In this document: in pieces, positions 6,916-23,607 of the stretch
Layout: every line of letters starts with the position of its first letter
Numbering within the stretch: the first letter of the stretch is position 1
Assembly: GCA_043804695.1 (NCBI GenBank)
Contig: JAZDIV010000081.1
Span: 1 to 23,607 of the forward strand
DNA: 23,607 nucleotides
Source: PVC group bacterium
GTDB lineage: Bacteria; Auribacterota; Erginobacteria; Erginobacterales; Erginobacteraceae
Direction: 5' to 3'
Translations under genes and position numbers: made by a program
The notes under the pieces: generated by a model
What the model was told of the DNA's origin: nothing
What the model saw: the letters and a program-made list of their open reading frames with translations, nothing else
The model's database searches: none

Positions 6916-6944
6916 GCCCCCCCGACTGAATCAGTCGGGGGGGC
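6916..6944. repeat. Perfect 14-bp inverted repeat
   Basis: gcccccccgactga-a-tcagtcgggggggc. Confidence 0.85.
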
Positions 6945-6953
6945 AATATAAAG

Positions 6954-6970
6954 TAGCGCCGAAGGCGCTA
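6954..6970 (+). repeat. TAGCGCC-GAA-GGCGCTA mini-hairpin (copy 1)
   Basis: 7 nt before btuC ATG. Confidence 0.85.
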
Positions 6971-6977
6971 ATTTATA

Positions 6978-7994
6978 ATGCTCAAAACCCCCGCTCAACG
7001 AACAGTCCTGATGTTTGCCCTTCTGGCTGCTCTTCTCCTCGTCGCCTTCGTCTCTCTCCATCTCGGTGACGTCACGCTCCCGTTCTCCCGGGTGGCCCGG
7101 ATGGCGGCCGGGGCCCTGGCCGGGAACCCGGAGCATTCACCCGCCGCCACCATCGTCTTCCGCCTGCGGCTCCCGCGGATCATCCTGGGGATCGCGGTCG
7201 GCGGCGGTCTGGCGGTGGCCGGCCTCCTCTTCCAGGGGCTGTTCCGGAACCCCCTGGTGGAGCCGTACACGCTGGGAGTTTCCGGGGGGGCGGCCCTGGG
7301 GGTCAGCCTGGGGTTTCTGGCCGGCGCCCGCCTTCCCCGGTTCTCCCTCCCTTTTCTCGGGTTTGCCGGGGCTTGGCTGGCGGTCTCGCTGGCATATGCC
7401 ATCGCCCGCCGCCGGAAGTTCCTCAAGATCCCGTACCTGCTCCTGGTCGGGGTGATGATCTCGTTCATCTCGTCGTCTTTGATCATGCTCCTTCTCTCGG
7501 TGGTGAGCCTGAGCCGGTTCCGGGCGGTCATCTACTGGACCATGGGCTCCCTGCAGGCGGCCGATCCCTCTCTGCTCTTGCTGGTCGTCCCCGTCATCTT
7601 GCTGGGGACGGCGGCATCCATGACCCTGGCCTGGACCCTGAACGCCCTCCAGCTGGGCGAGGAGGGGGCGCTCCATCTTGGGATCAGATTGGAGCGCGAG
7701 AAGAAATGGCTCTTTTTTCTGGGATCGCTCCTGGCCGGGACCGCGGTCGCGGTCGCCGGGGTGATCGGGTTTGTCGGCTTGGTGGTCCCTCATGTCATGC
7801 GTCTGATCTTCGGAAACGATCACCGGGTCCTGATCCCGGCATCCTTCCTGGCCGGGGGGGCCTTCCTGCTCCTCTGCGATACGGCGGCCCGGACGATCGT
7901 CTCGCCGGTGGAGCTGCCGGTGGGCGTGGTCACCGGGATCGCGGGGGGAGGGCTTTTTATCTATCTGTTAAGCCGGAATCATGAGGGAAGATAA
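6978..7994 (+). CDS. btuC: FecCD/BtuC ABC permease
   Basis: LRLPRII, QGLFRNPLVEPYTLGVSGGA, GVIGFVGLVVPH, ELPVGVVT. Confidence 0.9.
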   Translation: MLKTPAQRTVLMFALLAALLLVAFVSLHLGDVTLPFSRVARMAAGALAGNPEHSPAATIVFRLRLPRIILGIAVGGGLAVAGLLFQGLFRNPLVEPYTLGVSGGAALGVSLGFLAGARLPRFSLPFLGFAGAWLAVSLAYAIARRRKFLKIPYLLLVGVMISFISSSLIMLLLSVVSLSRFRAVIYWTMGSLQAADPSLLLLVVPVILLGTAASMTLAWTLNALQLGEEGALHLGIRLEREKKWLFFLGSLLAGTAVAVAGVIGFVGLVVPHVMRLIFGNDHRVLIPASFLAGGAFLLLCDTAARTIVSPVELPVGVVTGIAGGGLFIYLLSRNHEGR

Positions 7995-8020
7995 TGAACA
8001 TCGAACGTAATATGGGAGAT

Positions 8021-8092
8021 GTAAGCAGTGAGCGGTAAGCGGTGAGCGGTATTTGCCGGGCCACCGCTTACTGCTCACCGCTAACCGCTTAC
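8021..8092. repeat. Palindromic element with arms of four GTRAGCR heptamers
   Basis: gtaagca gtgagcg gtaagcg gtgagcg ... cgcttac tgctcac cgctaac cgcttac. Confidence 0.85.
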
Positions 8093-8135
8093 CCTGAAAC
8101 CTACCCGTCACCGGGGACTGATTACTATAAATAAA

Positions 8136-8939
8136 GTGAACGGAGAAACCCATGACAATCAGGAACTGTTGACCGCCCAAAACCTGTCCGCCGGCTACGG
8201 GAAGGAAACCATCCTTCGGGGGATCAACCTTGTCATCCGCCGGGGAGAGTTTATCGGCGTGGCCGGCCCCAACGGATCGGGGAAAACAACCCTGGTCCGG
8301 GCCCTGACCGGCGTCATCGGCCGCCGGGAGGGGACCCTCCGCTGGCGGGGGCGGCCGCTGGAGGACTGGGGGCCGAAGGAGATCTCCCGCTCCCTGGCGG
8401 TGGTCTCCCAGAACCCCGGGGGGGAGATTGACCTCCCGGTGGAGGATCTGGTCATGCTGGGCCGGATCCCCCATTTCCGGACCTTCCAGTGGCGCCCGTC
8501 ACCCCGGGACCGGGCGGCGGCCGACCGGGCGCTGGCGGCGACAGAGACGGCGGTCCTGCGGGAGAAGAACTTCCGGAATCTCAGCGGCGGCGAACAGCAG
8601 CGGGTGCTGATCGCCGCCGCCCTGGCCCAGGAGCCGGATCTGCTTTTCCTCGACGAGCCCACCCAGCACCTGGACATCAGCTACCAGATCGGGATTTTCC
8701 GCCTCCTGGGAGAGCTGAACCGGGAGCGCGGGGTGACGGTCTTCGTCATCCTCCACGATTTAAATCTGGCATCCGCCTACTGCCATCGGCTAATCTACCT
8801 GAAAAACGGAGAGGTCTGGAAAGACGGGCAGCCCCGGGACCTGATCTCCCGGGAATACCTCTCGGAACTCTACCGGGCGCGGGTGGAGGTCCTCCATCAT
8901 CCCGAAACGGGGCGCCCGCTGCTTTTCCCGGGAACGTAA
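8136..8939 (+). CDS. btuD: ABC ATPase (BtuD/FepC family)
   Basis: GPNGSGKT, LSGGEQQR, FLDEPT, LHDLNLA. Confidence 0.9.
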   Translation: MNGETHDNQELLTAQNLSAGYGKETILRGINLVIRRGEFIGVAGPNGSGKTTLVRALTGVIGRREGTLRWRGRPLEDWGPKEISRSLAVVSQNPGGEIDLPVEDLVMLGRIPHFRTFQWRPSPRDRAAADRALAATETAVLREKNFRNLSGGEQQRVLIAAALAQEPDLLFLDEPTQHLDISYQIGIFRLLGELNRERGVTVFVILHDLNLASAYCHRLIYLKNGEVWKDGQPRDLISREYLSELYRARVEVLHHPETGRPLLFPGT

Positions 8940-9155
8940 ATAAGCGTACCTGAAAATCAGGGGACCAGTAGGAAGGGCATCAGAATATCAGGAGATCAGG
9001 CACGGTAGGTCGGCCTCCCCTGATAACCTGATATCCTGGTATTCTTCCCACTGATATTCAGGTAACCTGATATCTACTTCGAGGATAATCAACACATCCA
9101 GTTAATTCCCCGGACATCGCCAAAATAAAAATTAGCGCGAAACGCTAAATTCCTT
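8940..9155 (+). repeat. ~216-bp dispersed element, ATCAG family, copy 1 (ends in mini-hairpin copy 2 at 9132-9148)
   Basis: Colinear over its full length with 15150-15366. Confidence 0.85.
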
Positions 9156-9190
9156 ATTATCTGGTGCTTGTTATTTGGGATTTACGCGAG

Positions 9191-10132
9191 ATGACGAAGA
9201 AACGGACATTAAGACAGTCTGAAATGTTTTTATATTTAATTCTACTCATCTTGATTACCGGAAGCGTTCTGGGTTGTTCGATTAAAAAGATGGCTGTCTC
9301 CGAACTCGGCGACGCGCTGGCCGCGGGCGGGGACGTCTACGCCTCGGATGACGATCCGGAACTGGTCAGGGCGGCCTCCCCGTTCAGCTTGAAGCTGATG
9401 GAGAGCCTGCTGGCGGAAGATCCCGAACACCGCGAGCTTCTCCTGGCGGCCGCCCGGGGGTTCACCCAATACAGCTACGCCTTTGTCCAGGAGGAGGCGG
9501 AAGAGACGGAGGAAACCGACCGGGAGCGGTCCGCCGCCCTGCGGGAGCGGGCCCGGCGGCTCTACCTGCGGGCCCGTGACTACGGGCTGCGGGGGCTGGC
9601 GGTCGGGCATCCGGGGATTGCCGAGGAGCTCCGCCGGGAACCCCGCGCCTCCCTAACCCGGACCGGAACCGGGGATGTCCCGTTTCTTTACTGGACGGCC
9701 GTCTCCTGGGCATCGGCCGTCTCCCTTTCCCGGGACGACCCCGATCTGATCGGAGATCTCCCGATCATTGACGCCCTGGTCGAGCGGGCCCTGGTTCTCG
9801 AAGAGGATTTCGGCGCCGGCGCCCTCCATACTTTCCTGATAACCTATGACATGAGCGGGCCGGGCGGGGAGAAAGAACGGGCGGCCCGCGCCCGGGGCCG
9901 CTTCGACCGGGCTGTTGAGCTGAGTTCCGGGGAGCAGGCGGCTCCGTTTGTCGCCCTGGCCGAGGCGGTTGCCGTCCCGGCCGAGGACCGGGAAGAATTC
10001 CGGTACCTGCTCAATCGCGCCCTAACGATCGACCCGGATGAATATCCGGAGCGGCGCCTGGCCAACCTGATTTACCAGCGCCGGGCCCGCCGGCTGCTGG
10101 AACGGGAGGAGGAGCTGTTCCTTGGACCATAG
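9191..10132 (+). CDS. tatT: TRAP transporter TatT component, probable lipoprotein
   Basis: Lipobox-like VLGC; DDPELVRAASPFSLKLMESLL; ARRLYLRARDYG; precedes dctP and dctQM. Start uncertain (9164/9191/9224). Confidence 0.85.
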   Translation: MTKKRTLRQSEMFLYLILLILITGSVLGCSIKKMAVSELGDALAAGGDVYASDDDPELVRAASPFSLKLMESLLAEDPEHRELLLAAARGFTQYSYAFVQEEAEETEETDRERSAALRERARRLYLRARDYGLRGLAVGHPGIAEELRREPRASLTRTGTGDVPFLYWTAVSWASAVSLSRDDPDLIGDLPIIDALVERALVLEEDFGAGALHTFLITYDMSGPGGEKERAARARGRFDRAVELSSGEQAAPFVALAEAVAVPAEDREEFRYLLNRALTIDPDEYPERRLANLIYQRRARRLLEREEELFLGP

Positions 10133-10182
10133 TGACGGGGTAGTCATCACTATGCTCTATTGCAGTATCAGAAAAGGGAAAA

Positions 10183-10312
10183 ATGGAGTGATGGAGTGGT
10201 GGGGTAATGGAGTGGTGGAGTAAGGGGGAGGTGGAGTAATGGAGTGATGGAGTGATGGAAGCCGATTTTGCCGGGCATCGGTCCCCAGTACTCCATCACT
10301 CCAGTACTCCAA
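10183..10312. repeat. Asymmetric palindromic element of RTGGAGTR octamers
   Basis: Nine in-register octamers at 10183-10254 (two degenerate); three inverted YACTCCAN copies at 10289-10312. Confidence 0.85.
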
Positions 10313-10359
10313 CCCTCCCGGCCATTAGCATGGTGTTAATTAAGGGCTATGCGGAATAA

Positions 10360-11394
10360 ATGAAGCCGTACGCGATAATTTTGACAGCCGTTCTTTTTAT
10401 CGGTCTCGGGTTGAATTGCGGCCGGGAGTCGGTAACCTATGCGGCGCCGGCCCGGCGCATCAAGATGACCACGCTCGCTCCCCGGGGGTCGTCCTATTAC
10501 AACTCCCTGCAGAAGATGGGGGACGAGTGGCAGAAGATCTCCGTCGGCGCGGTGAAACTGATCATCTATCCCGGCGGCATCCAGGGCGGGGAGGCGGCGA
10601 TGGTTGACCGGATGCGGGTCGGCCAGAGCCAGGCCGGGATGCTGACGGCGGTCGGCCTGGCGGAGATCGAGCCGGCGGTGAGGGGCCTCAATAGTCTCCC
10701 GATGATCTTCAACAGCCTGGAGGAGGTTGATTACGTGGGCCGGCGGCTCCGGCCGCTGCTGGAGGATCGTCTCCTGAAAAAAGGCTACGTGGTCCTCTTC
10801 TGGGCGGATGCCGGCTGGTTGCGGTATTTCTCGAAAAGCCCGATGATCACCCCGGACGATCTCAAGAAGATGAAGCTTTTCACCTGGGCGGGGTACCCGG
10901 GCCAGGTGGACATCATGAAATCGGCGGGCTATAACCCGGTTCCCCTGGAGACGGGGGACATCCTCCCCGGCCTTCAGACGGGGCTGATCGACGTCGTCCC
11001 GATGCCGCCTTTCTACGCCCTCGCCCAGCAGATCTACACCCCCGCTCCCCACATGCTGGCGCTGGACTGGGCACCGTTGGTGGGGGCGGCGGTGGTCACC
11101 CGGGAAGCCTGGGAGGAGGTCCCCGAGTCCCTCCGGGAGAAGCTGCTGGAGGCGGCGGCCGCGGCCGGAGATGAGATCAAGGCGGCCGGCAGACGGGAGA
11201 ACGACGAGTCGGTCCGGACGATGGAGGAAAAATGGGGCCTGAAGATCCATCCCGTCTCCCCGGAGGTGAAGGAGCTGTGGCGCCGGAGCGTGGAGAAGGT
11301 GTACCCGGAAATCCGGGGCGGGATTGTCCCCGCCGATACGTTCGACGAGGTGGTGCGGCTGCTGGAGGAGTACCGTGGCCGGGATCGTCAGTAG
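10360..11394 (+). CDS. dctP: TRAP substrate-binding protein DctP (TatP type)
   Basis: IKMTTLAPRGS, IYPGGIQGGE, TPDDLKKMKLF, LQTGLID. Confidence 0.9.
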   Translation: MKPYAIILTAVLFIGLGLNCGRESVTYAAPARRIKMTTLAPRGSSYYNSLQKMGDEWQKISVGAVKLIIYPGGIQGGEAAMVDRMRVGQSQAGMLTAVGLAEIEPAVRGLNSLPMIFNSLEEVDYVGRRLRPLLEDRLLKKGYVVLFWADAGWLRYFSKSPMITPDDLKKMKLFTWAGYPGQVDIMKSAGYNPVPLETGDILPGLQTGLIDVVPMPPFYALAQQIYTPAPHMLALDWAPLVGAAVVTREAWEEVPESLREKLLEAAAAAGDEIKAAGRRENDESVRTMEEKWGLKIHPVSPEVKELWRRSVEKVYPEIRGGIVPADTFDEVVRLLEEYRGRDRQ

Positions 11395-11475
11395 TCTTCC
11401 TCGGGCGCCGCCGCGTCGGCGCCCCTCGCCCGCGCGTTTCCCTCATATCCGGAATCCGCGGTGGAAGGGCATGAA

Positions 11476-13356
11476 ATGACAGAAAACTTCCGCCAGGCTG
11501 ATGACGGGTCGTCCCCCCGGGCGGCCGGAAAGCCGCCCCGGTTCGTCTGGCTGCGCGCCGGCGAGAACCTTCTTCTCATCCTGGCGCTGGGGGCGATGGC
11601 CGTCGTCCCCCTGGCGGAGATCGTGCTGCGCCGGTTTTTTCATACCGGCATCTCGGGGGCGAGCCCGATCGTGCAGCACCTGGTGCTGGTTGCCGGAATG
11701 CTGGGCGGGGCGGCGGCGGCCCGGGCGGGCCGCCTGCTCTCCCTCACCACCATAACATCCGTCCTCCCTCCCGGCCTCCGGGTTGCCGCCCGGGTGCTCA
11801 GCGCCGCTTTTGCCGCCGGGGTCACCTCTTTTCTCTGCCTGGGCAGCATCCGGTACATCGAGGTCAGCCGGGAGGCCGGGAAGATACTGGCCTACGGCGT
11901 CCCCGTCTGGGTGGTCCAGCTGGTCCTCCCGCTCGGCTTTGCCGCGATCGCGGTCCGGCTTATTCTCCGCGTGTCCGCGCGGTGGACCGTCCGGGCGGCC
12001 GTCTTTCTCCTGGCCGGGGGCCTTTTCCTGGTCGGCCTCGCCCCGCCGGTCCCCCCCGCCGACCTGGTGCTCCCGGCCCTGGTCTTTCTGATCCTGTCGG
12101 CGCTGCTGGGCGCGCCGATCTTCACGCTCCTGGGGGGGGCCGCTTTGATCCTTTTCTGGGGGGAGGGGAGCCCGATCGCCTCGATCGCGATTGATCATTA
12201 CCGGATGTCGGTCAACCCCTCGCTCCCGGCCATCCCCCTTTTTACCCTGGCCGGCTATTTCCTGGCCGAAGGAGGGGCGTCCCGGAGGCTGATCCGGGTT
12301 TTCCAGGCCCTGGTCGGACGTTTCCGGGGCGGCCCGGCCATCCTGAGCGCCCTGGTCTGCGCTTTCTTCACTTCTTTCACCGGGGCGTCGGGCGTGACGA
12401 TCCTGGCCCTGGGAGGGCTGCTGCTCCCGGTTCTCCTCGCGGCCGGGTATTCCCGGCGGAACGCGGTCGGCCTGCTCACCGGGTCCGGATCTCTCGGGGT
12501 GCTCTTTCCCCCCTGCCTGCCCCTGATCCTTTACGCGATCGTGGCCTCGACGATGGGTTCGCCCGTCACCATCAGGCAGATATTTTTAGGCGGCCTCATC
12601 CCGGGGCTGCTTCTGGTGGGGATGACCGGCTGGTGGGGTCGCTGGGCGGCGGGGAAAAAAGAGACCGGCTCCCACCCCCCCCGCTTTGACCCCCGGGAAG
12701 CCGGCCGGGCGATCCGGGCGGCCGGGTGGGAACTCCTCCTGCCGGTGGTCGCCCTGGCCGCGCTCTTCGGGGGGTTCGCCACGCCGGTGGAAGCCTCCGC
12801 GGTGACGGCGCTCTATGCTTTTATCGTGGAGACGTTCGTGTACCGGGACCTGAAGATGTTCAGCGATGTCCCCCGGATGATGACCGAGTGCGGGCTGATC
12901 ATCGGGGGGGTGCTGATGATCATCGGGGTGGCGATGGGTTTCACTAACTACCTGATCGACGCCCAGATCCCCGCGCAGGCGGTCGAGTGGGCGACCGGCT
13001 CGATCCACTCACCCTGGCTCTTCCTCCTGATCCTCAACCTGTTTCTCCTGGTGGTCGGCTGCCTGATGGACATCTACTCCGCCATCATCGTCGTGGTCCC
13101 CCTGATCGTCCCCCTGGGGGATGCCTTCGGGATCGATCCCGTCCATCTCGGGATCATCTTCATGGCCAACCTCCAGCTCGGCTATCTCACCCCCCCGGTG
13201 GGAATGAACCTCTTCCTCGCCTCGTACCGGTTCAACCGGCCGATGCCGGAAGTGATCCGGGCGGTGATCCCGATGTTTCTGGTTCTCCTGGTCGGGGTGC
13301 TCCTGATCACCTACATCCCCGTTCTCACCACCCTGCTTCCCGGCCTGTTCCCCTAA
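11476..13356 (+). CDS. dctM: Fused TRAP small and large permease (DctQ-DctM)
   Basis: N-terminal DctQ-like TMs; AIPLFTLAG, SGSLGVLFPP, ATPVEASAV, GIDPVHLG, YLTPPVGMNLF. Confidence 0.9.
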   Translation: MTENFRQADDGSSPRAAGKPPRFVWLRAGENLLLILALGAMAVVPLAEIVLRRFFHTGISGASPIVQHLVLVAGMLGGAAAARAGRLLSLTTITSVLPPGLRVAARVLSAAFAAGVTSFLCLGSIRYIEVSREAGKILAYGVPVWVVQLVLPLGFAAIAVRLILRVSARWTVRAAVFLLAGGLFLVGLAPPVPPADLVLPALVFLILSALLGAPIFTLLGGAALILFWGEGSPIASIAIDHYRMSVNPSLPAIPLFTLAGYFLAEGGASRRLIRVFQALVGRFRGGPAILSALVCAFFTSFTGASGVTILALGGLLLPVLLAAGYSRRNAVGLLTGSGSLGVLFPPCLPLILYAIVASTMGSPVTIRQIFLGGLIPGLLLVGMTGWWGRWAAGKKETGSHPPRFDPREAGRAIRAAGWELLLPVVALAALFGGFATPVEASAVTALYAFIVETFVYRDLKMFSDVPRMMTECGLIIGGVLMIIGVAMGFTNYLIDAQIPAQAVEWATGSIHSPWLFLLILNLFLLVVGCLMDIYSAIIVVVPLIVPLGDAFGIDPVHLGIIFMANLQLGYLTPPVGMNLFLASYRFNRPMPEVIRAVIPMFLVLLVGVLLITYIPVLTTLLPGLFP

Positions 13357-13420
13357 CGTTAATTATGTATTGTCTCCCTGGAATTCTTGAATGATAATTA
13401 TGAAAATGTAGAAGTGTCTT

Positions 13421-13642
13421 TCTGTTTCGGGATTTCCATAACCGGATTTTATCCGGTTATGGAAATCCCGAAACAGACGGAAAAGCAACCGGAATAAAAT
13501 AATCAGCTTTTGCTTTGTGATACCACAGGCTTACCGTTACGGATTAAGCAGTTGGACTCGAACTAAAGTTCGGATCGCTATCAATCTGTTTTATATTTAA
13601 CAAGAGAACATTCACTAAATTAGCGCCGGAGGCGCTAATTTA
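13421..13642 (+). repeat. ~220-bp dispersed element, CTGTTTCGG family, copy 1 (27-bp perfect IR head; mini-hairpin copy 3 tail at 13616-13642)
   Basis: IR 13421-13447/13451-13477, then ACGGAAAAGCAACC, TCGAACTAA and ACTAAATTAGCGCC, matching 23392-23607. Confidence 0.8.
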
Positions 13643-14016
13643 TGTATGAAGTGTTTATTCAAGTCCGGTTCTCCGCGGCCCATTTCCTGGCCGGCCACCC
13701 CGGCCCCTGCCGGAATCTGCACGGCCACAACTGGCTGGTCAGGGTTTCTCTCCGGTGCCGGGAGCTCGACGGGCTGGGGATGGGGTATGATTTCACCGTC
13801 CTCAAGGAGGAGCTGTCCGGCATCTGCCGGGGTCTCGATCACGCCGTCCTCAATGAACTCGACTATTTCCGGGACCGCAACCCCACCGCCGAGAACGTGG
13901 CCCGGTTCATCCACGCCAGCCTCAGCGAACGGATCAATGACGGCCGGGTGGAGGTCTCGGAGGTCGAGGTCCGGGAAACCTCCGACAGCGGCGCCAGCTA
14001 CTATAGACAAATGTGA
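13642..14016 (+). CDS. queD: 6-carboxy-5,6,7,8-tetrahydropterin synthase
   Basis: FSAAHFL, CRNLHGHNW, LDHAVLN, NPTAENVA, VRET. Confidence 0.95.
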   Translation: MYEVFIQVRFSAAHFLAGHPGPCRNLHGHNWLVRVSLRCRELDGLGMGYDFTVLKEELSGICRGLDHAVLNELDYFRDRNPTAENVARFIHASLSERINDGRVEVSEVEVRETSDSGASYYRQM

Positions 14017-14037
14017 TTTTTCGAGCACGGTATCGCG

Positions 14038-14811: not shown

Positions 14812-15147
14812 ATGACGATCGACACGTTTCCAAACAAATATTCCAACCGGGACTACACGATCACCATCCGGAACCCCGAGTACACATCGGTCTGCCCGAT
14901 TACCGGCAACCCCGATTTCGGCACCATCACCGTCGAGTACGTACCGGACAAACTCTGCCTGGAGCTGAAGTCCCTCAAGTTGTATTTCTTCGGTTTCCGG
15001 AACAGGGGGGTGTTCTACGAGTCCCTGGTCAACGAAATCATTGACGACCTGGTGACGACCTGTTCTCCCCGGAAGATGACGGTGACCGGTGATTTTACCC
15101 CGCGCGGGGGCATCACATCCACCGTCAAAGCTGAATACTGTAAATAA
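14812..15147 (+). CDS. queF: preQ0 nitrile reductase, short type
   Basis: PEYTSVCPITGNPDFG, ELKSLKLY, RGGI; GGGAG before ATG 14812. Confidence 0.95.
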   Translation: MTIDTFPNKYSNRDYTITIRNPEYTSVCPITGNPDFGTITVEYVPDKLCLELKSLKLYFFGFRNRGVFYESLVNEIIDDLVTTCSPRKMTVTGDFTPRGGITSTVKAEYCK

Positions 15148-15149: not shown

Positions 15150-15366
15150 ATAAGCGGATCAGATAATCAGGAGATCAGTGGGAAGGGGATCAGAATATCA
15201 GAGGATCAGTCGGCGAGGTCGTCCTCGCCTGATAACCTGATGTTCTGATATTCTGCCCGCTGATATCCTGATAACCTGATATTCACTACGGGGATGATCA
15301 CCCCATCCATTCAATCCCCGGACAGTACGAAAACAAATAGTTAGCGCCGAAGGCGCTAAGTTTCTT
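15150..15366 (+). repeat. ~217-bp dispersed element, ATCAG family, copy 2 (ends in mini-hairpin copy 4 at 15341-15359)
   Basis: Fills the queF-queC gap almost exactly; homologous to 8940-9155. Confidence 0.85.
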
Positions 15367-16054: not shown

Positions 16055-16151
16055 ACCGCGAAGGTCACGAAGTACACGAAGAATAATTAAGCAGAAATGA
16101 AATGTGGCTCATTTTTAGTACGATCTCCTTGAACTCCGTGTTCTTCGTGGT
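16055..16151. repeat. Palindromic element with nonamer (CACGRAG) arms, copy 1
   Basis: accgcgaaggtcacgaagtacacgaag ... ctccgtgttcttcgtggt. Confidence 0.75.
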
Positions 16152-16163
16152 TTTCTTATTTGA

Positions 16164-16369: not shown

Positions 16370-16417
16370 CCTCTTATTTTTATGTCAATGAGACACAGTG
16401 TTTGATCAGGTATAACC

Positions 16418-16990
16418 ATGCACCAGGAGATTATATATCCCGGCGCGGAGGGTTTTTCCGTCCGTCGGCCAGTGCGGCTGGTTGGCGATCAGGAAGGGTT
16501 GGAACGGCTCTGCGCGGAACTTCTCGGGGAGGCTGTCATCGCCCTGGACGTGGAGACGACGCTCGACTGGGGACGTCTCTGCCTGGCCCAGGTCGCCACC
16601 GGCGCCTGGAGCGCGGTCATCGATGTCTTCGAGATCGAAGATATCTCACCGCTTTTCGCCGTCCTGGAAAACCCGTCGATAAAAGTCATTATTCATAATG
16701 CCGGCTTCGAGCGCTCCATCCTCAGCCCGCTCGGGTGTCACATCACCGGCGTCTTCGACACCCTTCGCGCCTCCCGCCGCCTCCGGGGCTACCGGATCGC
16801 GGGGGGGCACAGTCTGGGGGCGGTCTGCCGGCGGGAACTGGAGATCGAGCTGGACAAGAGCTACCAGAGGTCCGACTGGCGCCGCCGCCCGCTTTCCTCC
16901 GGCCAGATCAACTACGCCGCGCTGGACGCGGAGGTGCTGATCGATCTCTACGAAATATTCCGGGATCTTTTTTTTCCGGAGGAAAAATAA
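16418..16990 (+). CDS. Stand-alone DEDDy 3'-5' exonuclease (RNase D / PolA exo-like)
   Basis: IALDVET, HNAGFE, VFDT, QRSDWRRRPLS, YAALDA; no HRDC domain. Confidence 0.88.
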   Translation: MHQEIIYPGAEGFSVRRPVRLVGDQEGLERLCAELLGEAVIALDVETTLDWGRLCLAQVATGAWSAVIDVFEIEDISPLFAVLENPSIKVIIHNAGFERSILSPLGCHITGVFDTLRASRRLRGYRIAGGHSLGAVCRRELEIELDKSYQRSDWRRRPLSSGQINYAALDAEVLIDLYEIFRDLFFPEEK

Positions 16991-16992
16991 GA

Positions 16993-17139
16993 ATCGAGGC
17001 CGGGCTCGCCCGGCTGGTGGTCACCGAGGATCCGAACTTCACCAAGGACGACTGCTACAATTTCCGCCTCGCCCGCGAATACCTGGAGCGGGCCGGGGTG
17101 AAGATCGAGGTGAGAAAAGACCTCAGGTGCCGGCGCTGA
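16993..17139 (+). pseudogene. Startless 3' gene remnant resembling a dCMP deaminase C-terminus
   Basis: IEAGLARLVVTED...LAREYLERAGVKIE with host-like GC3 codons. Confidence 0.5.
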
Positions 17140-17173
17140 TCGGGGCTTCATGGACGGACATTGCCGGCCGGGA

Positions 17174-17202
17174 TTGCGTGATCCGGCTCCATGCGGTATC
17201 TT
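17174..17202 (+). promoter_or_regulatory. Putative sigma70 promoter (leaderless) for the gene at 17210
   Basis: TTGCGT-17 nt-TATCTT, 7 nt before ATG. Confidence 0.45.
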
Positions 17203-17209
17203 ACCTTAG

Positions 17210-17828
17210 ATGACTATTCGCCGCCATTCCCATAATCTTTTTCTTCCGGTGCTGCTTCTTCTCGGCTGCATTTATGTCCCCGGCGCCTTCCCGTTTGCCC
17301 CCGGACCGATCCCGCCCCCGGAAGAGGAAGCGCTCTTCTTGGTTTCCTCCCGGAGGCCCCTCGACCGGACCGTTCTGACCGCACCCGGCCGGGTGCTTTA
17401 TTTCGGCCCCGGGAGCGCCCTGGTGCGGACGACCCAGGCCTGGGCCGAAAGCCTGGCGGGGGAGGGGATGGAGATCAAGCGGGTGATGCCGCGGACGGGG
17501 CTTCGCCGCGCCGTCCGCCGTTCCCCCTCCGCCGTCCGGGTCCGGCCGCGCCGCTCCGGAGATCCGGCTGATGATCGGGCGGGTTGATTACGACGGGGAC
17601 GGCACCTCCGCTCCGGCGGTATTCCGGCCGGGTTCGGGGCTCTGGGCGGTCCGGGCACTGACCCGGCTTAATTTCGGTCCCGGGACCGACCTCCCCGTCC
17701 CGGCCGATTATGACGGCGACGGTGCCGATAACCCCGGGATATTCCGCGCCGGCTCCGGCCTCTGGGCGGTCCGGGGGATGACACGGGTTTACTTCGGGAG
17801 GGAGGGGGATATCCCCGCGACCCGGTGA
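17210..17828 (+). pseudogene. Frameshifted secreted protein with two C-terminal DYDGDG (FG-GAP/VCBS-like) repeats
   Basis: The signal-peptide ORF 17210-17587 continues in another frame via a Pro-rich linker into the 17571-17828 repeats, ending DIPATR. Confidence 0.65.
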
Positions 17829-18014
17829 GGGGAGACGGCGCTCATCCTCTTTCATGCATGGTCCGGGTTAAAACCATGTATAATAACATATGTTCCTGTT
17901 TCGGAATGCGCAAGCCTGGCAATAACATTTAAAGATATGTTTTAGAATTTTTATTTTATATCCAATCACATTCAATCGTCTATTAAATCAAAATTCTCTC
18001 CCGGGAACTGATCC

Positions 18015-18596
18015 GTGGACCCGAAAGATTTTAATGCCATTTACGAGAAGTATGGACCCCTGGTCTGGTCGATGATCGGGAAGATGGGGGTCGCCGGTCC
18101 GGACCGGGAGGACGTCTTCATGGAGTCGTGGGAGGCCGTCTTCAGTTCCATCGGCACCTTCGACGGGCAGTCAAAGTTCTCGACCTGGCTCGCCCGGATC
18201 GTCAGGAATAAGTCCATCGATCACATCCGTAAGCACATCTTGGTTCCCCTGGACGACGAAGAACTGGCCCGCCGGGCCGATGACGCCGGGTCCCGGACGG
18301 AGGGCATGTCCTTTCTCCCCCGGGGAGCCCTGTCGCCCCGGGCGGGGGCGATCCGGCAGGAGGCGGCCGACCTGATCCGGACCGCCCTGGACGAGCTTTC
18401 CCCGCAGAGAAAATTCATCGTCGGGAAATGGATGATCGGGTTCAAGTACCGGGAGATCGCTGAAATGCTCACCGCCGCCTCCGACGACCCGGTGGATGAA
18501 AAGTACGTGGGGAAACAGATCTATTACGTTAAGATGATCCTGGCCGAGGCGCTGGCGGGGGCAGGGATAGAATCTCTTGAAGATTTATTGGAATAA
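18015..18596 (+). CDS. ECF sigma-70 factor
   Basis: EDVFMESW, FDGQSKFSTWLARIVRNKSIDHIRK, ALDELSPQRK, GFKYREIAEML. Confidence 0.9.
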   Translation: MDPKDFNAIYEKYGPLVWSMIGKMGVAGPDREDVFMESWEAVFSSIGTFDGQSKFSTWLARIVRNKSIDHIRKHILVPLDDEELARRADDAGSRTEGMSFLPRGALSPRAGAIRQEAADLIRTALDELSPQRKFIVGKWMIGFKYREIAEMLTAASDDPVDEKYVGKQIYYVKMILAEALAGAGIESLEDLLE

Positions 18597-18663
18597 AAAG
18601 GGCCGCTCATCCGACTAATCAATAAACAAGTGTTGGTCCCTATCCTTGGAAAAACTATTTTAC

Positions 18664-18763
18664 CAACCACAGAGCACACGGAGGTCACGGAGTGAAAGAT
18701 GAAAAATAAAAAAGGTTTGTTATCTGAATATCATCTCAGTGATCTCCGTGTTCTCCGTGGTTG
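18664..18763. repeat. Palindromic element with nonamer (CACGGAG) arms, copy 2
   Basis: caaccacagagcacacggaggtcacggag ... ctcagtgatctccgtgttctccgtggttg. Confidence 0.85.
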
Positions 18764-18816
18764 ATATGGTATATGAATATATGTAAGCCGGGAAACAGTA
18801 ATTGACTTAGTTGATT

Positions 18817-19839
18817 ATGCAACGTTGTCTTACAGAAGAAGAGATCAGCCGTTATCTCGACGGGGAGTTCGCGCCCCGGGAAGCCCGCGCGGCCGCGGCC
18901 CATATCGAGAAATGCCCTGCCTGCGGGGCCCTCTGCCGGAAGCTCCGCGCGTCCGGCCGGGCCCTGGAGACGTGGGCGTCGTCGGCGGTTCCCCCGGATC
19001 GGAAGAGAGGGGAAGACTGCCCCGACGAAGGGCTTTTAGCGGCGTTTGCCGACGGCAGCATCCGCGAAATAAACGCGCGCCGCGGGATCGCGGCTCACCT
19101 GGCCCGGTGCGCGCGCTGCTCCCGAATCGCCGCGGAAGCAGCCCGGGCGGCCGATCTGGCCGGCGCGGCTCAACGCGGAAAGCCGGATCCCGTTCCCGCC
19201 CGTCTTCACCGGATGATTGAGGAACGGTTCTTCCCTCGCCCGGTTTCTCTGGGGAGGATTGAGATAGACCTAGCCGAAATATGGGGGACTTTTGCCCGCT
19301 GGGTCCGGCCCCGGTTTCCAGGGCAGCTTGCCTATGCCATCTCCCCGGATTACCTGAGTCCGCAGATGGCGGCGGAAGACCGGGTGCCCTATTCCCCGCC
19401 GGAGCCCGGTGAATCCGCATTCCGGGAGGCCAAAAAGGGGGAGCCGGAAAACCGCCCCGGGGAGCGGAAGGCCGTCCGGAAGGTGAAGAGACCGCTGAGA
19501 ACGAAGCCGCTCTCCCGGGCCGCGCGGCTAAAATCCGGCAGTGCCGATAACAGGCCCTCCCCATGCCCCCGGTGGTCTTTTGAGCGGGGAGACCTCCGGG
19601 TCTCGGTCGAGGTGGCGGACGGCAAAGAAGGGGAGGGCGCCTGCCGGATAGACGTCACCGACCGGAGGGGATGCCCTCTCTCCGGCGTTCCCCTGGTGCT
19701 GGAGAAAAGCGGGCAGGAAATCTGGTCGGATACCACTCAGCTGAAGAAGGAGTCCATCTTCCCCCACCTCGTCCCCGGGCAGTACCGGCTCATCATCACC
19801 GGCGAGAATGTCTACAGCCTGGATCTTGACATCAAATAA
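18817..19839 (+). CDS. Putative anti-sigma factor with two zf-HC2 domains and a C-terminal beta-rich domain
   Basis: YLDGE...HIEKCPAC and CPDEGLLAAF...HLARCARC; follows the ECF gene. Confidence 0.75.
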   Translation: MQRCLTEEEISRYLDGEFAPREARAAAAHIEKCPACGALCRKLRASGRALETWASSAVPPDRKRGEDCPDEGLLAAFADGSIREINARRGIAAHLARCARCSRIAAEAARAADLAGAAQRGKPDPVPARLHRMIEERFFPRPVSLGRIEIDLAEIWGTFARWVRPRFPGQLAYAISPDYLSPQMAAEDRVPYSPPEPGESAFREAKKGEPENRPGERKAVRKVKRPLRTKPLSRAARLKSGSADNRPSPCPRWSFERGDLRVSVEVADGKEGEGACRIDVTDRRGCPLSGVPLVLEKSGQEIWSDTTQLKKESIFPHLVPGQYRLIITGENVYSLDLDIK

Positions 19840-19877
19840 AAATATGCGGAACACGTTAGTTCTTTGAAATTTTTTTC

Positions 19878-19910
19878 TATCCACCACCGACGCAGGGTCG
19901 GTGGTGGATA
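19878..19910. repeat. 14-bp inverted repeat, CCACCACCG family copy 2
   Basis: tatccaccaccgac-gcagg-gtcggtggtggata. Confidence 0.8.
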
Positions 19911-19959
19911 TTTGCAAAGAGCTGAAATGTTACAAATATGCTATGATGCCAATGCCAAT

Positions 19960-20202
19960 ATGAGAACAATAATACTCGAAGAGGATGTTCTCGACCGGGC
20001 GCGGGCCCTGAAGAAAAAACTCCGGATCCCATTTAAGGCAGTGATCAATCAGGCCCTGCGGATCGGGCTGGAGAAAGTGGAGGAGCCCGGATGGCGCAAG
20101 TCTTACCGGACCAGGCCGCATCCGATGGGACTGCGCAAGGGGTATGATCTGGATAACATCCGGGAACTGCTCGCCCAGGCTGAGGGAGAGGACTCCCGGT
20201 GA
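19960..20202 (+). CDS. VapB-like (RHH) antitoxin
   Basis: MRTIILEEDV...FKAVINQALRIGL...DNIRELLAQAEGE; its stop overlaps a PIN-gene GTG start. Confidence 0.8.
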   Translation: MRTIILEEDVLDRARALKKKLRIPFKAVINQALRIGLEKVEEPGWRKSYRTRPHPMGLRKGYDLDNIRELLAQAEGEDSR

Positions 20203-20279
20203 TTCTGGTTGACGCCAATATATTGTTCTATGCCGAGGATAGCCTGAGCCCCCGCCACGCCGGATCCCGTATGTGGTGA
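20199..20279 (+). pseudogene. vapC: Truncated VapC PIN toxin
   Basis: (M)ILVDANILFYAEDSLSPRHAGSRMW* followed by further in-frame stops. Confidence 0.8.
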
Positions 20280-20405
20280 GATTAATTCTCCTGAATAATC
20301 CGGGTCAGGACATTCCTCCCGTAGTGAGAATTTCCTCCCGGCGCGTTTCCCAGCGCGCCCGGCGCCGGTGGCGGGAGCCTTCCCGCCGTGATATATTTAG
20401 CCGGA

Positions 20406-23105
20406 ATGAAAAAGGGCGCCGTCATTTTCATCCTCTGCCTGGGTTTCGGGCTTTTACCGAAACCGGCCCCTGCCCAGACCCCCACACCGCCCCCCGGGAT
20501 CTCGGCCGTCTGGGCGAACAGCGGCGAGGGCAAGATAACCCGGGACGAACTGCGCGCCTCTGCCGATCCCGGGGGTGTCGTCAACTCGGTCTGGGACGGA
20601 ACCTCGGTCAGGCTCTTCGGGGCGAAGAACGAGATCGTCGCCTTCAACCTCTGCCTGGAGGCCGCCACCCGGTCGGCAGCGGGGGTAACGGTCTCCCTTA
20701 ACCGGCTGGACGGCCCGGGCGGGTCCGTGATTCAATCCTCGGCAACGACGGGGGACGGGGTTTTCAACTGGAACGGCCGTGACATCGAGCTTTTTTACAT
20801 CCGCTACCTGGAAATCGAAGGGCTGAGCCGCCTCTCCTACGAGTCGTATGACGAGCGGCACATCCCAAAGCGGTTTCGCCGCCCCTGGAGCGGTGACGGG
20901 GAGGGGAGCGGGACCTGGCTTGACCGACCCGATCACAACAAACAGTACCCCGAGATCGCCGTTCCCCTCGAACTGGTCCCGGGCTTCACTATCCAGACCG
21001 GTCAAAACCAGAGCATCTGGTGTGATATCTATATCCCGGACAATGCGCCGGCCGGGCTCTATACCGGAAGCGTTACCGTCACTGAGAACGGTGCTCCCGC
21101 CCGGCAGGTCCCCGTTGAGCTGACCGTCCGCGATTTCACCCTTCCGGACCTCCCTTCGGCCCGGACGATGCTCTTCATCAGCACCGATAACATCAACTAC
21201 CGGTATCTCGGGACGTTATATCCCACCCCGGGAACCTCCCTTTACCAGCAGAGTCTTCTGCTGGCCGACCGGCATTTTCAACTCGCCCATCGCCACCGGG
21301 TCTCCCTGATCGACGGGTATACGGATCCGGCCGATATGGACGAGGTGTGGGCCGACCGGCTGAACGGGAATCTCTTCACGCCTGCCCGTGGTTACCGGGG
21401 CCCCGGCCGGGGGGTGGGGAACAACATTTACTCGATCGGGACCTATGGCGGATGGCCCTGGCAGGGCGGGGGTGAGGCGGCGATGCGTTCGAATACGGAT
21501 CTTTGGGCGAACTGGTTCAATATCCGGAACTTCAGCACCCCCACGGAGTACTTTCTCTACCTGATCGACGAGTCGAGTGATTATCCTCAGATCGAGGAAT
21601 GGGCGCAATGGATCAACAATAACCCGGGCCCCGGCCGCCAGGTGCTCTCGATGGCCACCGTCTCCCTGGTTGACGGCGTCAACCGGACCCCGTCCCTCGA
21701 CATACCAGATTCCGGTACGGCCACCGGTATTACGGCCGACTTCCAGGCCGCTGCCGCCAGCCTGCTCTCCTCTCCCGATAAGCGGCTCTGGATGTATGCC
21801 GCCTACCGGCCCAATGTCGGTTCCATGGCCATCGAGGATGACGGGGTCAGCCCCCGGGTGACGGCCTGGGCCCAGTTCAAGAAACAGGTTGGCCGCTGGT
21901 TTTACTGGGAGTCCACCTACTACGACAACTTCCAGGGGGGTACCGGCCAGACCAATGTCTTCCGGTCGGCATTTACCTTCGGCGGCCACAGCGGTTACAA
22001 CCAGGTCCTCGGTGAGACCGGCTGGAACTACGGGAACGGCGACGGCGTCCTCTTCTATCCCGGGACCGATCTCAACTTCCCCGTCGACTCGTATGGGGTA
22101 AACGGTCCCTTTGCCAGTCTTCGCCTCAAGCACTGGCGTCGCGGTATCCAGGACGTGGATTACCTGACCCTGGCAGCGAAGGTGGCACCGGACCGGGTAT
22201 TGCAGATCGTCAGCACAATGATACCCAAAATCCTCTGGGAGTGTGGTGTCGACGACCCGACCGATCCGACCTGGATCCGGACCGACATCAGCTGGTCGAC
22301 CGATCCGGATGTCTGGGAAGCCGCCCGGCGGGAACTGGCGGATATCATCGAGGCGGGCGCGGCCCCGGTTCCCCATTCCGGGGATTACGATGGGGACGGA
22401 ACCGACGACATCGCCGTCTTCCGGCCGTTTTCCGGACTCTGGGCGGTCCGCGGCATCACCCGGCGCTATTTTGGAACGTCCTCGGCCCGCCCGGTCCCGG
22501 GGGATTACGACGGCGACGGGACCACCGATATCGGGGTCTTCCGCCCCGACACCGGCCTCTGGGCGATCGTCGATAAGACCCGCTTCTATTTCGGGAGGGA
22601 AGGGGATCGGCCGGTTCCCGGAGACTATGACGGGAACGGGATCTGTGATACGGGTATATTCCGTTCCGGCGCCGGCCTCTGGGCGATCAGAGCTGTCAGC
22701 CGGATGTACTTCGGTCGGGCCGGCGACTCCCCGGTTCCGGGCGATTATGACGGCGACGGTACGGAGGAAGCCGCCGTCTTCCGGCCGGCGGCCGGCCTCT
22801 GGGCGGTCAGGGGAGGGCCCCGGATCTATTTCGGCGGTTCCGCTGACGAACCGGTCCCCGGAGACTACGATGGCAATGGTACCAGAGACTGTGCTATCTT
22901 CCGGCCGTCACTTGAATTATGGGCGATCCATGCTGTAACCCGTATCTATTTCGGCAACGCAGCCGATACCCCGGTCTCGGCAGACTATGCGGGGAGCGGG
23001 ACTGACTCGATCGGCATCTTTCGGCCTTACTCCGGCCTCTGGGCGATCAGGAAACTCACCCGAGTCTATTACGGGACTACGGGAGACATACCGGTTACGA
23101 GGTAG
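20406..23105 (+). CDS. Secreted GH123/DUF4091-like putative glycoside hydrolase with six C-terminal FG-GAP/VCBS-like repeats
   Basis: Signal peptide; [17 protein letters not shown]...[37 protein letters not shown]. Confidence 0.7.
22380..23102 (+). repeat. Six tandem 120-bp (40-aa) coding repeats
   Basis: GDYDGDG..D..IFRP..GLWA....TR.YFG...D.PV units starting at 22380, 22500, 22620, 22740, 22860, 22980. Confidence 0.92.
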
Positions 23106-23198
23106 AATCCAATCCGAGGTTGTCCCCTATTTTGCGCCTTAAAATGTAGATTTTGACCCTGCTTGCAGACAATGGGGCCGCGGGCGAGAGCCGGACAA

Positions 23199-23233
23199 CC
23201 TGTATCCTGTATCCTGTATCCTGTATCCTGTAT
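23199..23233 (+). repeat. Heptamer tandem repeat (CCTGTAT)x5
   Basis: Five perfect copies, plus degenerate copies to about 23260. Confidence 0.92.
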
Positions 23234-23300
23234 CTATCAATCATCCTGTATCCGATATCTTGCCTCATGTAATTTGCCGCTTCGGAATTTTAATAAAGTA

Positions 23301-23368
23301 TCTGTGGGAGGGGTTTTCAACCCCGATTTAGTGTGCAGGGAATCGGGCTTAAAAAGTCCTCCCACAGA
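23301..23368. repeat. GTGG-headed REP doublet (REPIN-like)
   Basis: tctgtgggaggggttttcaaccccgatt ... aatcgggcttaaaaagtcctcccacaga; each arm has an internal imperfect palindrome. Confidence 0.8.
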
Positions 23369-23370
23369 AG

Positions 23371-23387
23371 TTAGCGCGAAGCGCTAA
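23371..23387 (+). repeat. TTAGCGC-GAA-GCGCTAA mini-hairpin (copy 5)
   Basis: Perfect 7-bp stem with GAA loop. Confidence 0.88.
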
Positions 23388-23391
23388 GTTC

Positions 23392-23607
23392 CTGTTTCGG
23401 AATTTCAATAATCAGATAAATCCGATTATTGAACTCCCGAAACAGACGGGAAAGCAACCTGGATCAACTCATGTCCTTTTCTGGTTTAAAATCTAAAGGG
23501 TTAAATGTCACTTCTTGTACAATAGAATTCGAACTAATCCCCGTACATCATCCGACTGTTACCGGTTTGAATAGTATAACCCGCAATAAGTAACTAAATT
23601 TGCGACC
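23392..23607 (+). repeat. CTGTTTCGG family element, copy 2 (runs off the window)
   Basis: IR 23392-23417/23420-23445 (23/26), ACGGGAAAGCAACC, TCGAACTAA, ends ACTAAATTTGCGACC. Confidence 0.75.

Follow-up and report, generated by a model that had tools for sequence, protein, structure and literature searches.

A polar G-N-A hairpin at the 3' end of mosaic intergenic repeat cassettes in Erginobacteraceae (Auribacterota)

The window analyzed here is the whole contig JAZDIV010000081.1 (23,607 nt; contig C81 below) of the assembly GCA_043804695.1, which belongs to a PVC group bacterium of the family Erginobacteraceae (Auribacterota). The genome comprises 2.97 Mb in 155 contigs, has a G+C content of 57.8%, and is 88% complete. 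The window contains a fragment of a Y1 transposase-like gene of the HUH (histidine–hydrophobic residue–histidine) type at the contig start, the gene of a FecCD permease, a transporter operon beginning with TAtT, and the genes queD, queF, and queC. A small hairpin with a G-N-A triloop recurs between these genes, and this hairpin with the repeats preceding it is the subject of this work (Table 1). Five copies are located in the window, together with a probable sixth one truncated at the contig end. The original prediction, made from the letters of the window, had placed five copies there with a purine loop on the plus strand and had suspected a degenerate copy start at the window end. All five copies can be read in the sequence, and each has its purine loop on the plus strand. 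Four exact plus-strand matches to TAGCGC(0-2)GRA(0-2)GCGCTA were found in the window against none in 100 dinucleotide shuffles. The cores at 6954-6970, 13621-13637, and 15342-15358 are 17-mers TAGCGCC-GRA-GGCGCTA, and the core at 23372-23386 is the short form TAGCGC-GAA-GCGCTA. The string ACTAAATTTGCGACC at 23593-23607 stands behind a body of the family-1 type and is one base off the start of the genome copy C1:180 (CACTAAAT-TAGCGACC-GAA-GGGCGCTA); the suspected sixth, truncated copy is therefore likely.

The position of the copies relative to the genes can be noted first. In copy 1, the final paired base, 6977, adjoins the ATG of the FecCD permease gene at 6978. In copy 3, the paired stretch ends on the first base of the queD ATG (13642-13644), an A, and in the sister species a hairpin is located at the same place ahead of queD. 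Homologues of both FecCD and queD begin at the same residues in the sister species. The queC ATG (15367) is 8 nt past the core of copy 4, and the gene after copy 2 is TAtT, with its start at GTG 9164 or ATG 9191.

Table 1. Coordinates of the hairpin copies and the surrounding features in the window
Feature	Position	Strand	Remarks
Y1 (HUH) transposase-like gene, 3' part, with a DnaA-type C-terminal helix-turn-helix; truncated at contig start	3..752	+	HLYQGRYKAF in translation
Sigma-70-like promoter site TTGGCT-N18-TATAAT within family-0 head	6852..6881	+	10/12 matches
13-14-bp G+C inverted repeat, the variable inner hairpin of family-0 head	6916..6944	+	other copies have different, still paired arms
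G-N-A hairpin copy 1, TATAAA-g-TAGCGCC-GAA-GGCGCTA-a-TTTATA	6947..6977	+	pattern match, fold
ATCAG/CTGAT heptamer head-to-head array, head family 3	8955..9075	+	sequence reading, clustering
G-N-A hairpin copy 2, degenerate, TTAGCG-CGAAA-CGCTAA	9132..9148	+	fold only -5.5 kcal/mol as DNA
Long palindrome CTGTTTCGG...CCGAAACAG, 5' module of family-1 cassette	13422..13476	+	
Family-1 cassette body (CTTACCGTTACGG...ATCAATCTGTTTTA...ATTCAC)	13477..13615	+	
G-N-A hairpin copy 3, TAAAT-TAGCGCC-GGA-GGCGCTA-ATTTA	13616..13642	+	pattern match, fold
Second ATCAG heptamer array, inserted between queF and queC	15157..15285	+	
G-N-A hairpin copy 4, TTAGCGCC-GAA-GGCGCTAA	15341..15359	+	pattern match
Doublet GTGGGAGGGG...CCTCCCAC (GTGG), head family 5	23302..23367	+	second genome copy on C19
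G-N-A hairpin copy 5, short form GAAGT-TAGCGC-GAA-GCGCTA-AGTTC	23367..23391	+	one G.G mismatch
CTGTTTCGG palindrome opening the next cassette, right at the foot of copy 5	23392..23445	+	
Probable 5' half of sixth hairpin (ACTAAAT-TTGCGACC)	23593..23607	+	truncated at contig end

The search with at most one stem mismatch found 129 copies in the genome. The loop is GAA in 75 of them, GGA in 34, GCA in 10, and GTA in two, with eight other loops; thus, G-N-A accounts for 121 of the 129 copies. The original prediction had described the 7-bp core as a hairpin, which is correct; however, the real stem is longer, as five more A/T-rich pairs (TAAAT...ATTTA, TAAAG/CTTTA, TTAAG/CTTAA(T), or GAAGT/AGTTC) flank the core. 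The result is a 12-bp stem, TAAAT-TAGCGCC/GGCGCTA-ATTTA or covarying variants of it, and both strands fold into it with -8 to -12 kcal/mol as DNA and -12 to -17 kcal/mol as RNA. The fold z-scores of the four good window copies range from -3.2 to -6.7, and the copy at 9132 folds weakly. Paired variants of the core include TAGCGGC/GCCGCTA, TAGCGAGC/GCTCGCTA, and TAGCGTC/GACGCTA. Seven positions (core pairs 6-7 and lower-stem pairs 1-5) are occupied by two to four Watson-Crick pair types each, and at each of them the pairing exceeds that in all 1000 partner shuffles, an excess that is not a probability, given that the hairpin copies are related. Pairing ends after 12 bp, with no excess from the sixth outer pair outward. 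Pair-keeping double changes are also seen between orthologous copies of the two species: at C1:16738, T-A is exchanged for A-T, and at C8:5784, a C-G pair of the lower stem is exchanged for A-T. Because the stem pairs covary beyond the shuffles, the data argue for the folded single strand, and not a protein operator, as the conserved form; this agrees with the earlier claim of a hairpin rather than an operator of fixed spacing. The triloop closed by a C-G pair (C-GNA-G), found in those 121 copies, is a hallmark of very stable DNA mini-hairpins (PMC13037366 and PMC3201870). GNA/TNC loops are present in 379 of the 631 long triloop hairpins of the genome. A search of Rfam with E values up to 1 placed no family over the hairpin or its heads, the only hits being tRNA and sub-threshold microRNA- and snoRNA-like hits to palindromes.

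Several other hairpins of the genome resemble this one. A second, A/T-rich G-N-A family, TCTTATTTTT(C)C-GNA-G(G)AAAAATAAGA, has about 170 copies, for example at locus L018 near 9620 and in the 5' parts of family-0 cassettes. A family similar to the repetitive extragenic palindromic (REP) elements, CGTTCCCACGC-GGA-GCGTGGGAACG, has about 14 genome copies. The variant AAAT-TTGCGAGC-GCA-GCGAGCTA-ATTT can pair only if two tandem G.A mismatches are allowed (GC-GA-GC/GC-GA-GC); it was found in the genome under study on C51, at C84:10246, and on C72, and in the sister species at the orthologue of C8:5784. In the sister species, this variant takes the place of the standard form at the same junctions.

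The setting of the tail against start codons is the most striking property of the hairpin and was absent from the original prediction. Genes were called with a simple codon-usage caller (2228 genes covering 80.5% of the genome). On the 3' side of the 121 G-N-A copies, a gene start is located within 40 nt in 64 cases and a convergent stop within 40 nt in 21; on the 5' side, the corresponding numbers are three and three. When all 129 copies are sorted by what adjoins the 3' foot, a start codon follows the core at 0-10 nt in 42 and at 11-40 nt in 22, the latter nearly all with a GGAGG-like Shine–Dalgarno (SD) sequence directly behind the hairpin. A convergent stop lies within 20 nt in 25 copies, and another cassette start (CTGYTTCGG) is found at the foot in nine. 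Eight copies fall within a called gene, and 23 have other surroundings; several in these two classes are gene-call errors and belong to the start or stop classes. In the stop class, the codon is often supplied by the element itself, by the TAG of the core six times and by a TAA of the lower stem six times. At C148:24 and C154:62, the hairpin meets the 3' end of an oppositely oriented tRNA gene (GCCGAAGGCGGGATTTGAACCC...), which is a fourth kind of boundary. Between co-directional genes, 62 cassettes have the sense and 20 the antisense orientation. About 6% of the genes carry a hairpin.

The orientation of the hairpin agrees with the local GC skew in 77 of the 121 G-N-A copies (77:44), and that of the genes in 1527 of 2228 (1527:701); no replication-strand bias beyond that of genes is seen. 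SD use in this genome is moderate, with a 5-mer SD in 23% of genes compared with 5% in a control window. The hairpin itself does not serve as an SD site in the form of an accessible GGAGG 5-10 nt ahead of the start: GGAGG occurs within it only in the 34 copies with a GGA loop, half of it in the stem and 9-14 nt from the ATG, and the copies 11-40 nt away have a separate SD.

The DNA upstream of the hairpin is variable. When the 400 nt upstream of each copy were clustered, with similarity required to reach the hairpin, nine multi-copy head families were obtained (33, 28, 10, 7, 3, 2, 2, 2, and 2 copies), along with 40 singletons. The original prediction of four families with a constant tail thus holds as regards the variable heads and the shared tail, and the diversity is wider than it supposed. 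Among the heads that it listed, the 14-bp inverted repeat, the ATCAG palindromes, and the GTGG doublet are real; however, the CTGTTTCGG palindrome does not lie against the tail as a head would. The copy at 13422-13476 opens a cassette of about 220 nt that ends in the hairpin, and the copy at 23392-23445 comes after the short hairpin. Random orientation, a lack of palindromes upstream, or confinement to this locus had been named as grounds for giving up the idea of a modular system; the 129 copies are spread over the genome, are polar, and have repeats upstream.

In family 0 (the type with the inverted repeat at 6916), a sigma-70-like site is followed by a leader, by a G+C inverted repeat whose arms vary and yet pair in every case, and by the hairpin. 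The aligned promoter-like site passes the scan in 11 of the 33 copies of this family. A promoter in every cassette was considered and ruled out, as scans of the family-1 and ATCAG cassettes of the window found no site at a conserved place. Family 1 (the 13422-13642 type) is a unit of about 220-250 nt opening with the CTGTTTCGG palindrome, family 3 consists of the ATCAG arrays, and family 5 is the GTGG doublet with the short hairpin. The tails differ between the families. Family 1 has the TAAAT lower stem in 28 of 28 copies and a GGA loop in 21; family 0 has TAAAG or TTAAG in 25 copies and a GAA loop in 27 of 33; family 2 has GAAGT in 10 of 10, with the short core. Tail variants follow head families, so head and tail are copied as one unit. 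The TAGCGGC tail is found with family 0, family 1, and unique contexts; therefore, modules also reassort. The 102 spacers that hold hairpins have a median length of 288 nt, a median of 86% of which is covered by repeats found elsewhere in the genome, and the median length of unexplained DNA is 0 nt on the tail side and 5 nt on the head side. Several short modules are thus combined between genes in varied orders and subsets, as in mosaic repeats. Six pairs of neighboring hairpins lie within 1 kb of each other, with spacings of 163-947 nt, and two of the pairs are inverted. Head-to-head arrays of 7-nt units make long palindromes, in the window at 8955-9075 and 15157-15285 and at locus L015 at 1-170 and 8590-8760. 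The units are of the GATCAG type here and of the GATTACC, AAATCCT, and CTTCGTG types in the sister species, and arrays of different unit types sit at the same junctions in the two species. Integron attC sites and CRISPR repeats were set aside on form alone, as the element is a perfect hairpin of 31-35 nt without spacer periodicity.

The sister species of the same genus (genome G001) is about 80-88% identical to the genome under study in coding DNA, and 28 orthologous junctions could be compared. They come from window copies 1-4, which lie within the stretch syntenic between the species; from 13 hairpin sites of the sister species, of which one had no match (L022) and one was ambiguous (L025); and from a comparison of all copies of the genome under study with 800 kb of the sister genome. 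The last comparison gave 27 flank matches; 13 of them lay in another repeat or were weak and were left out (C9:37250, C40:56, C47:9933, C60:31159, C62:21371, C70:20216, C81:23372, C87:27938, C110:9038, C127:19498, C133:12179, C147:156, and C1:18470). The same cassette is present in both species at only three junctions (C32:5778, C22:2649, and C1:16738). At ten, the hairpin is at the same spot with a different head and often with another loop, lower stem, or core; these include queD, C87:43980 (family 0 with GAA in one species and a family-1-like head with GGA in the other), and C8:5784 and C51 (TAGCGCC-GGA versus TTGCGAGC-GCA-GCGAGCTA with tandem G.A pairs). The hairpin is therefore present in both species at 13 of the 28 junctions. 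At the remaining 15, it exists in one species only. At the empty sites, the boundary of the insert is 0-4 nt from the ATG, for example 'ctaaatttta|ATG' at C84:25229. At C84:12459, the genome under study has AAGGAG ahead of the ATG, where the sister species has the hairpin on the ATG.

The queF-queC junction indicates how the spacers may have looked before insertion. In the window, a 220-nt cassette separates the two genes. In the hairpin-free genus and in G004, a genome from another genus of the family, queF and queC share an ATGA overlap, or an SD located within queF links them, which leaves a junction of zero length; therefore, the cassettes entered very short spacers. This explains in part why the hairpin abuts the genes, and it does not explain the polarity. 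QueF ends seven residues earlier in the window (...EYCK*) than in G004 (...EYVKPPHRGKR*), as seen from window positions 15120-15147 and loci L016 (6720-6790) and L017 (3140-3260), apparently because the cassette entered the overlapping stop-start junction.

The three shared cassettes are 93.5% (354 nt, C22:2649), 91.1% (248 nt), and 72.1% (215 nt) identical between the species. In the flanking genes, third codon positions are 55-67% identical, and first and second positions 77-97%. Shared copies also retain locus-specific variants, such as the identical inner inverted repeat at C32. Two of the three cassettes are thus constrained, or at least slow, because their identity is far above that of the flanking third codon positions; some cassettes evolve four to five times slower than the neighboring synonymous sites.

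The 17-mer was counted in 41 genomes. There are 81 occurrences in the genome under study, 35 in the sister species, and 47 and nine in two genomes from other genera of the family (G003 and G004, respectively). None were found in five genomes of a fourth, sister genus of the family or in 32 genomes of other families of the order and phylum. A 20-mer version was found at 45 loci across one genome for each of 185,579 species, and 42 of these loci are in three records of metagenome-assembled genomes, one of which is Candidatus Euphemobacter frigidus. Candidatus Euphemobacter is filed under Candidatus Auribacterota, family Erginobacteraceae, and contig C106 of the genome under study matches a contig of that record with 82% identity over 1069 nt. 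The three single hits to other groups (Rhodocyclaceae, Tepidisphaeraceae, and Dehalococcoidia) were taken as chance: two have no complementary flank, and the third has ATTT on the 3' side without a complement on the 5' side. Likewise, nine matches of the 17-mer in viral contigs lack the TAAAT/ATTTA lower stem and represent unrelated hairpins. In metagenomes of the Joint Genome Institute (JGI), 86 further stretches were found, of which 80 were retrieved and 67 were distinct. These loci have contexts of 40-59% G+C, the same lower stem, and new heads. Among the 50 metagenome loci with enough flank, an open reading frame starts within 45 nt on the 3' side in 25 and on the other side in 10. In total, the same core and placement are seen in 100 distinct public genome and metagenome copies. 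The range of the hairpin is limited to three genera of a single family, close to Candidatus Euphemobacter, plus related contigs from metagenomes. The main text of the paper that names these taxa (PMC9324843) contains none of the terms for repeats, palindromes, or hairpins, and the titles and abstract openings of the Auribacterota literature indicate no work on repeats.

Taken together, these observations lead us to regard the hairpin, with slightly more confidence than doubt, as the conserved polar 3'-end module of clade-specific mosaic intergenic repeat cassettes, similar in kind to the bacterial interspersed mosaic elements (BIMEs) and BOX elements, and probably as an mRNA leader hairpin. 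The cassettes are built from interchangeable modules (the CTGYTTCGG palindrome, hairpins rich in A/T, arrays of heptamers, REP-like doublets, and, in family 0 only, a promoter-like site), and every cassette ends in the G-N-A hairpin. They are copied as head-plus-tail units, with modules also being exchanged, and were inserted into originally very short spacers, of which they now form almost the entire length. The hairpin end is set against whichever boundary comes next: an SD or start codon, the stop codon of a convergent gene, the end of a tRNA gene, or a further cassette. The signal would be read on the G-N-A strand only, as a folded single strand, and its end may be recognized by a putative copying or recombination machinery. 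Where the hairpin is sense to the next gene, as in three quarters of the co-directional cases, it would be transcribed as a stable leader hairpin that isolates the start region from the repeat-rich upstream RNA, in a way compatible with initiation without SD. This isolation may be the reason why cassette insertions survive and some are conserved, and it fits a genome with the moderate SD use noted above. A function in mRNA would make the hairpin a natural insulator of translation starts that lack an SD; a function as a recombination handle would point to an enzyme that acts on G-N-A hairpins.

Several points weigh against this interpretation. The role in RNA is one that we infer from the sequence. 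It cannot be the whole story because 25 copies lie antisense against stop codons and cannot act as leaders there; the best conserved shared cassette, C22:2649 (93.5%), is of this antisense, stop-abutting class, and 5'-leader function alone cannot explain its conservation. Mismatches on the G-N-A strand are frequently purine-purine (G.A 32, G.G 19), and A.C mismatches (17) outnumber G.T (7), which does not favor wobble pairing in a sense RNA. The promoter-like site belongs to family 0 only, with none at a fixed place in families 1 and 3. As regards mobility, no target-site duplication is seen at the cleanest pair of empty and filled sites (C84:25229) or around solo copies, and no enzyme that would mobilize the cassettes was identified. 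Among the 80 retrieved metagenome loci, there is no near-identical strain that would give insertion polymorphism at the strain level: six have a megablast hit, two of them long at 80-82% identity and four short (75-105 nt) at 84-93%. Finally, the gene boundaries used are those of the simple gene caller.

The original prediction linked the tail to the Y1 gene at the window start as a REP-associated tyrosine transposase (RAYT), and a REP/RAYT-type system, in which the hairpin is a single-stranded DNA signal nicked or mobilized by a Y1 HUH transposase like that at 3-752 while the heads land beside it, appears unlikely to us. Such a system would be in keeping with the stable C-GNA-G triloop known from DNA mini-hairpins (PMC13037366 and PMC3201870), the persistence of the hairpin family across genera, as for REPs, and the cassette starts at the 3' foot of at least nine hairpins, which would also suit the landing pad proposed earlier. 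The base before the core TAG is G in 44 of the 129 copies (GTAG), T in 82, and A in three, and a conserved GTAG on the 5' side of the palindrome is a feature of E. coli REPs. Y1 genes are present at seven loci, six with Pfam hits plus the window fragment, and all seven lack a hairpin within 6.2 kb: the nearest is 6.2-15.1 kb away, and two of their contigs have none at all. The window fragment reaches 23.1 bits with Pfam Bac_DnaA_C, which is under the cut-off, and 20.8 bits with NCBIfam REP_Tyr_transpos (NF047646), whose cut-off is 80. It is 36% identical to the full-length protein encoded on C43, which has Y1_Tnp and Bac_DnaA_C hits and is the closest to NF047646, with 72.9 bits, still under the cut-off. 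A different inverted repeat of 36 nt, GGTGTCGCGTCTTGACATTGGACAT... (L003, 897-932 and 1906-1941), brackets the C43 gene, with one arm within the 3' end of the gene; the 24-nt core of this repeat occurs 14 times in the genome and bears no relation to the G-N-A hairpin. This repeat is a candidate cognate repeat of the C43 protein. PF01797 occurs in each of the nine family genomes, also in the five hairpin-free ones of the sister genus, four of which encode a Y1-DnaA_C protein. Moreover, there is no arrangement in REPINs (REP doublets), the tail variants follow the heads, and the orientation follows GC skew no better than that of genes. The proposed link to this gene is thus not supported, given the distances, the repeat of C43, the relatives, and the lack of doublets; however, the RAYT reading keeps some weight because a single-copy enzyme acting in trans need not adjoin its target. 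Features of a miniature element of the IS200/IS605 type were not found either: the hairpin is at one end only, the orientation bias is no stronger than that of genes, and no TnpB-type gene (PF07282) was detected in the 88%-complete genome itself.

The hairpin could instead be a dedicated cis-acting mRNA element, that is, a leader signal (5'-end stabilizer, processing site, or marker of SD-less starts) that is itself under selection and has spread by selection and gene conversion, with its repeat nature secondary. We consider this possible, at a fairly low probability. It would readily explain the 42 starts at 0-10 nt and the position directly before the SD of most of the 22 others, the alternation of AAGGAG and the hairpin at C84:12459, the retention of the hairpin at 13 of 28 junctions though the heads differ, the conservation of cassettes far above third codon positions, and the placement held in distant relatives (25 versus 10 of the 50 metagenome loci). 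It accounts poorly for the 25 antisense copies at stops and the at least nine that face another cassette, for the small share of genes with a hairpin, and for the lack of an excess of G.T over A.C mismatches; moreover, the genes can do without the hairpin, as one of the two species lacks it at 15 of the 28 junctions. More speculatively, and rather improbably in our view, the cassettes might be portable expression units in which the G-N-A hairpin is both a portable start-site module replacing the SD region and a recombination handle for swapping promoter-leader cassettes; if true, the genome would have a built-in means of rewiring operons. The palindrome TTAGCGCC-N3-GGCGCTAA beside promoters might also be read as the operator of a dimeric DNA-binding regulator, since a perfect palindrome near the starts of unrelated genes resembles a global regulator site. 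This is very improbable: the half-sites change compensatorily (GCGGC/GCCGC, GCGAGC/GCTCGC, GCGTC/GACGC) without a single consensus, the core stem varies from 6 to 8 pairs, the G-N-A loop is strand-specific, and many copies lie after stops or between cassettes. An intrinsic two-way transcription terminator is hardly credible either. The consensus scan flags both strands, with a stem followed by ATTTAT or CTTTAT, and 25 copies come directly after convergent stops; however, the T run is short (3-4 bases) and forms part of the paired lower stem, 64 copies lie between the upstream region and the gene's own start, and the family-0 hairpin is downstream of the promoter-like site, where termination would silence the gene.

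As a mosaic of modules ending in a G-N-A hairpin, the cassettes can be compared with known systems. BIMEs of enterobacteria (REP, or palindromic unit, plus accessory motifs) are likewise high-copy, lineage-restricted intergenic mosaics of few modules around a palindromic unit; in contrast to them, the G-N-A hairpin is always the 3' end and stands against a start or stop codon, and there are no inverted doublets, no flanking RAYT, and no similarity to any Rfam family. Correia elements of Neisseria and mycobacterial interspersed repetitive units (MIRUs) are also small repeats beside or between operon genes, some with promoters or cut in mRNA. In operons, MIRUs occupy the exact interval from the stop codon of one gene to the start codon of the next and keep a fixed polarity. 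However, terminal inverted repeats and a TA duplication mark Correia elements, MIRUs are tandem direct repeats with small open reading frames, and neither is known to end in a constant G-N-A hairpin. BOX elements are transcribed together with nearby genes. We know of no report that they abut starts within 0-10 nt or give stops to convergent genes. BOX elements are found in Streptococcus pneumoniae (PMC3049150). Composed of boxA, boxB, and boxC, they share with the cassettes the modular short repeats near genes, the stable folds, and the lack of a known transposase of their own, and they differ in modules and phylum. REP/REPIN-RAYT systems (PMC3116915 and PMC3337134) have in common with the cassettes short extragenic palindromes of long vertical persistence and Y1 transposase-like genes in the genome; four of their features are absent here, namely a RAYT flanked by its own REP, inverted doublets, co-occurrence of repeat and RAYT across genomes, and a protein score above the cut-off of the curated model. 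The d(GCGNAGC) mini-hairpins with the same triloop, in the two sources cited for it above, are physico-chemical model oligonucleotides. As Rfam (E up to 1) indicates no sequence homology to described mosaic-repeat families, the cassettes belong to a like-working class and not to the same family.

What is new compared with the known mosaic repeats is the constant G-N-A end module, the placement at start and stop codons, and the swapping of cassettes at fixed junctions. BIME, BOX, and REP elements have been known for decades, and how they spread and what use the host makes of them is still under debate. In this clade, the situation is unusually clear: one constant, strand-specific hairpin marks the polar end of every cassette, lies a few bases from starts or stops, and is traded between types of cassette at sites that sister species have in common. 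For gene annotation in Auribacterota, start codons should be expected right behind the hairpin, whether it acts in mRNA or in recombination.

Some other features of the window can be mentioned. The TRAP-TAtT transporter operon (9164-13356; TAtT, DctP, and a fused DctQM) is located between the ABC transporter and the que genes both here and in the sister species. In G004 and G005, this operon is absent from the place, and an ABC ATPase gene is followed by queD. Two more long palindromes were found at 10222-10324, between TAtT and DctP, and at 5768-5828, just past a tRNA gene (5684-5767); they gave only sub-threshold microRNA-like hits in Rfam. Five tandem copies of CCTGTAT(C) follow the gene of a large FG-GAP protein at 23199-23235, and tandem repeats of the CCAACGGACC type are located at 753-790, directly after the Y1 gene fragment.

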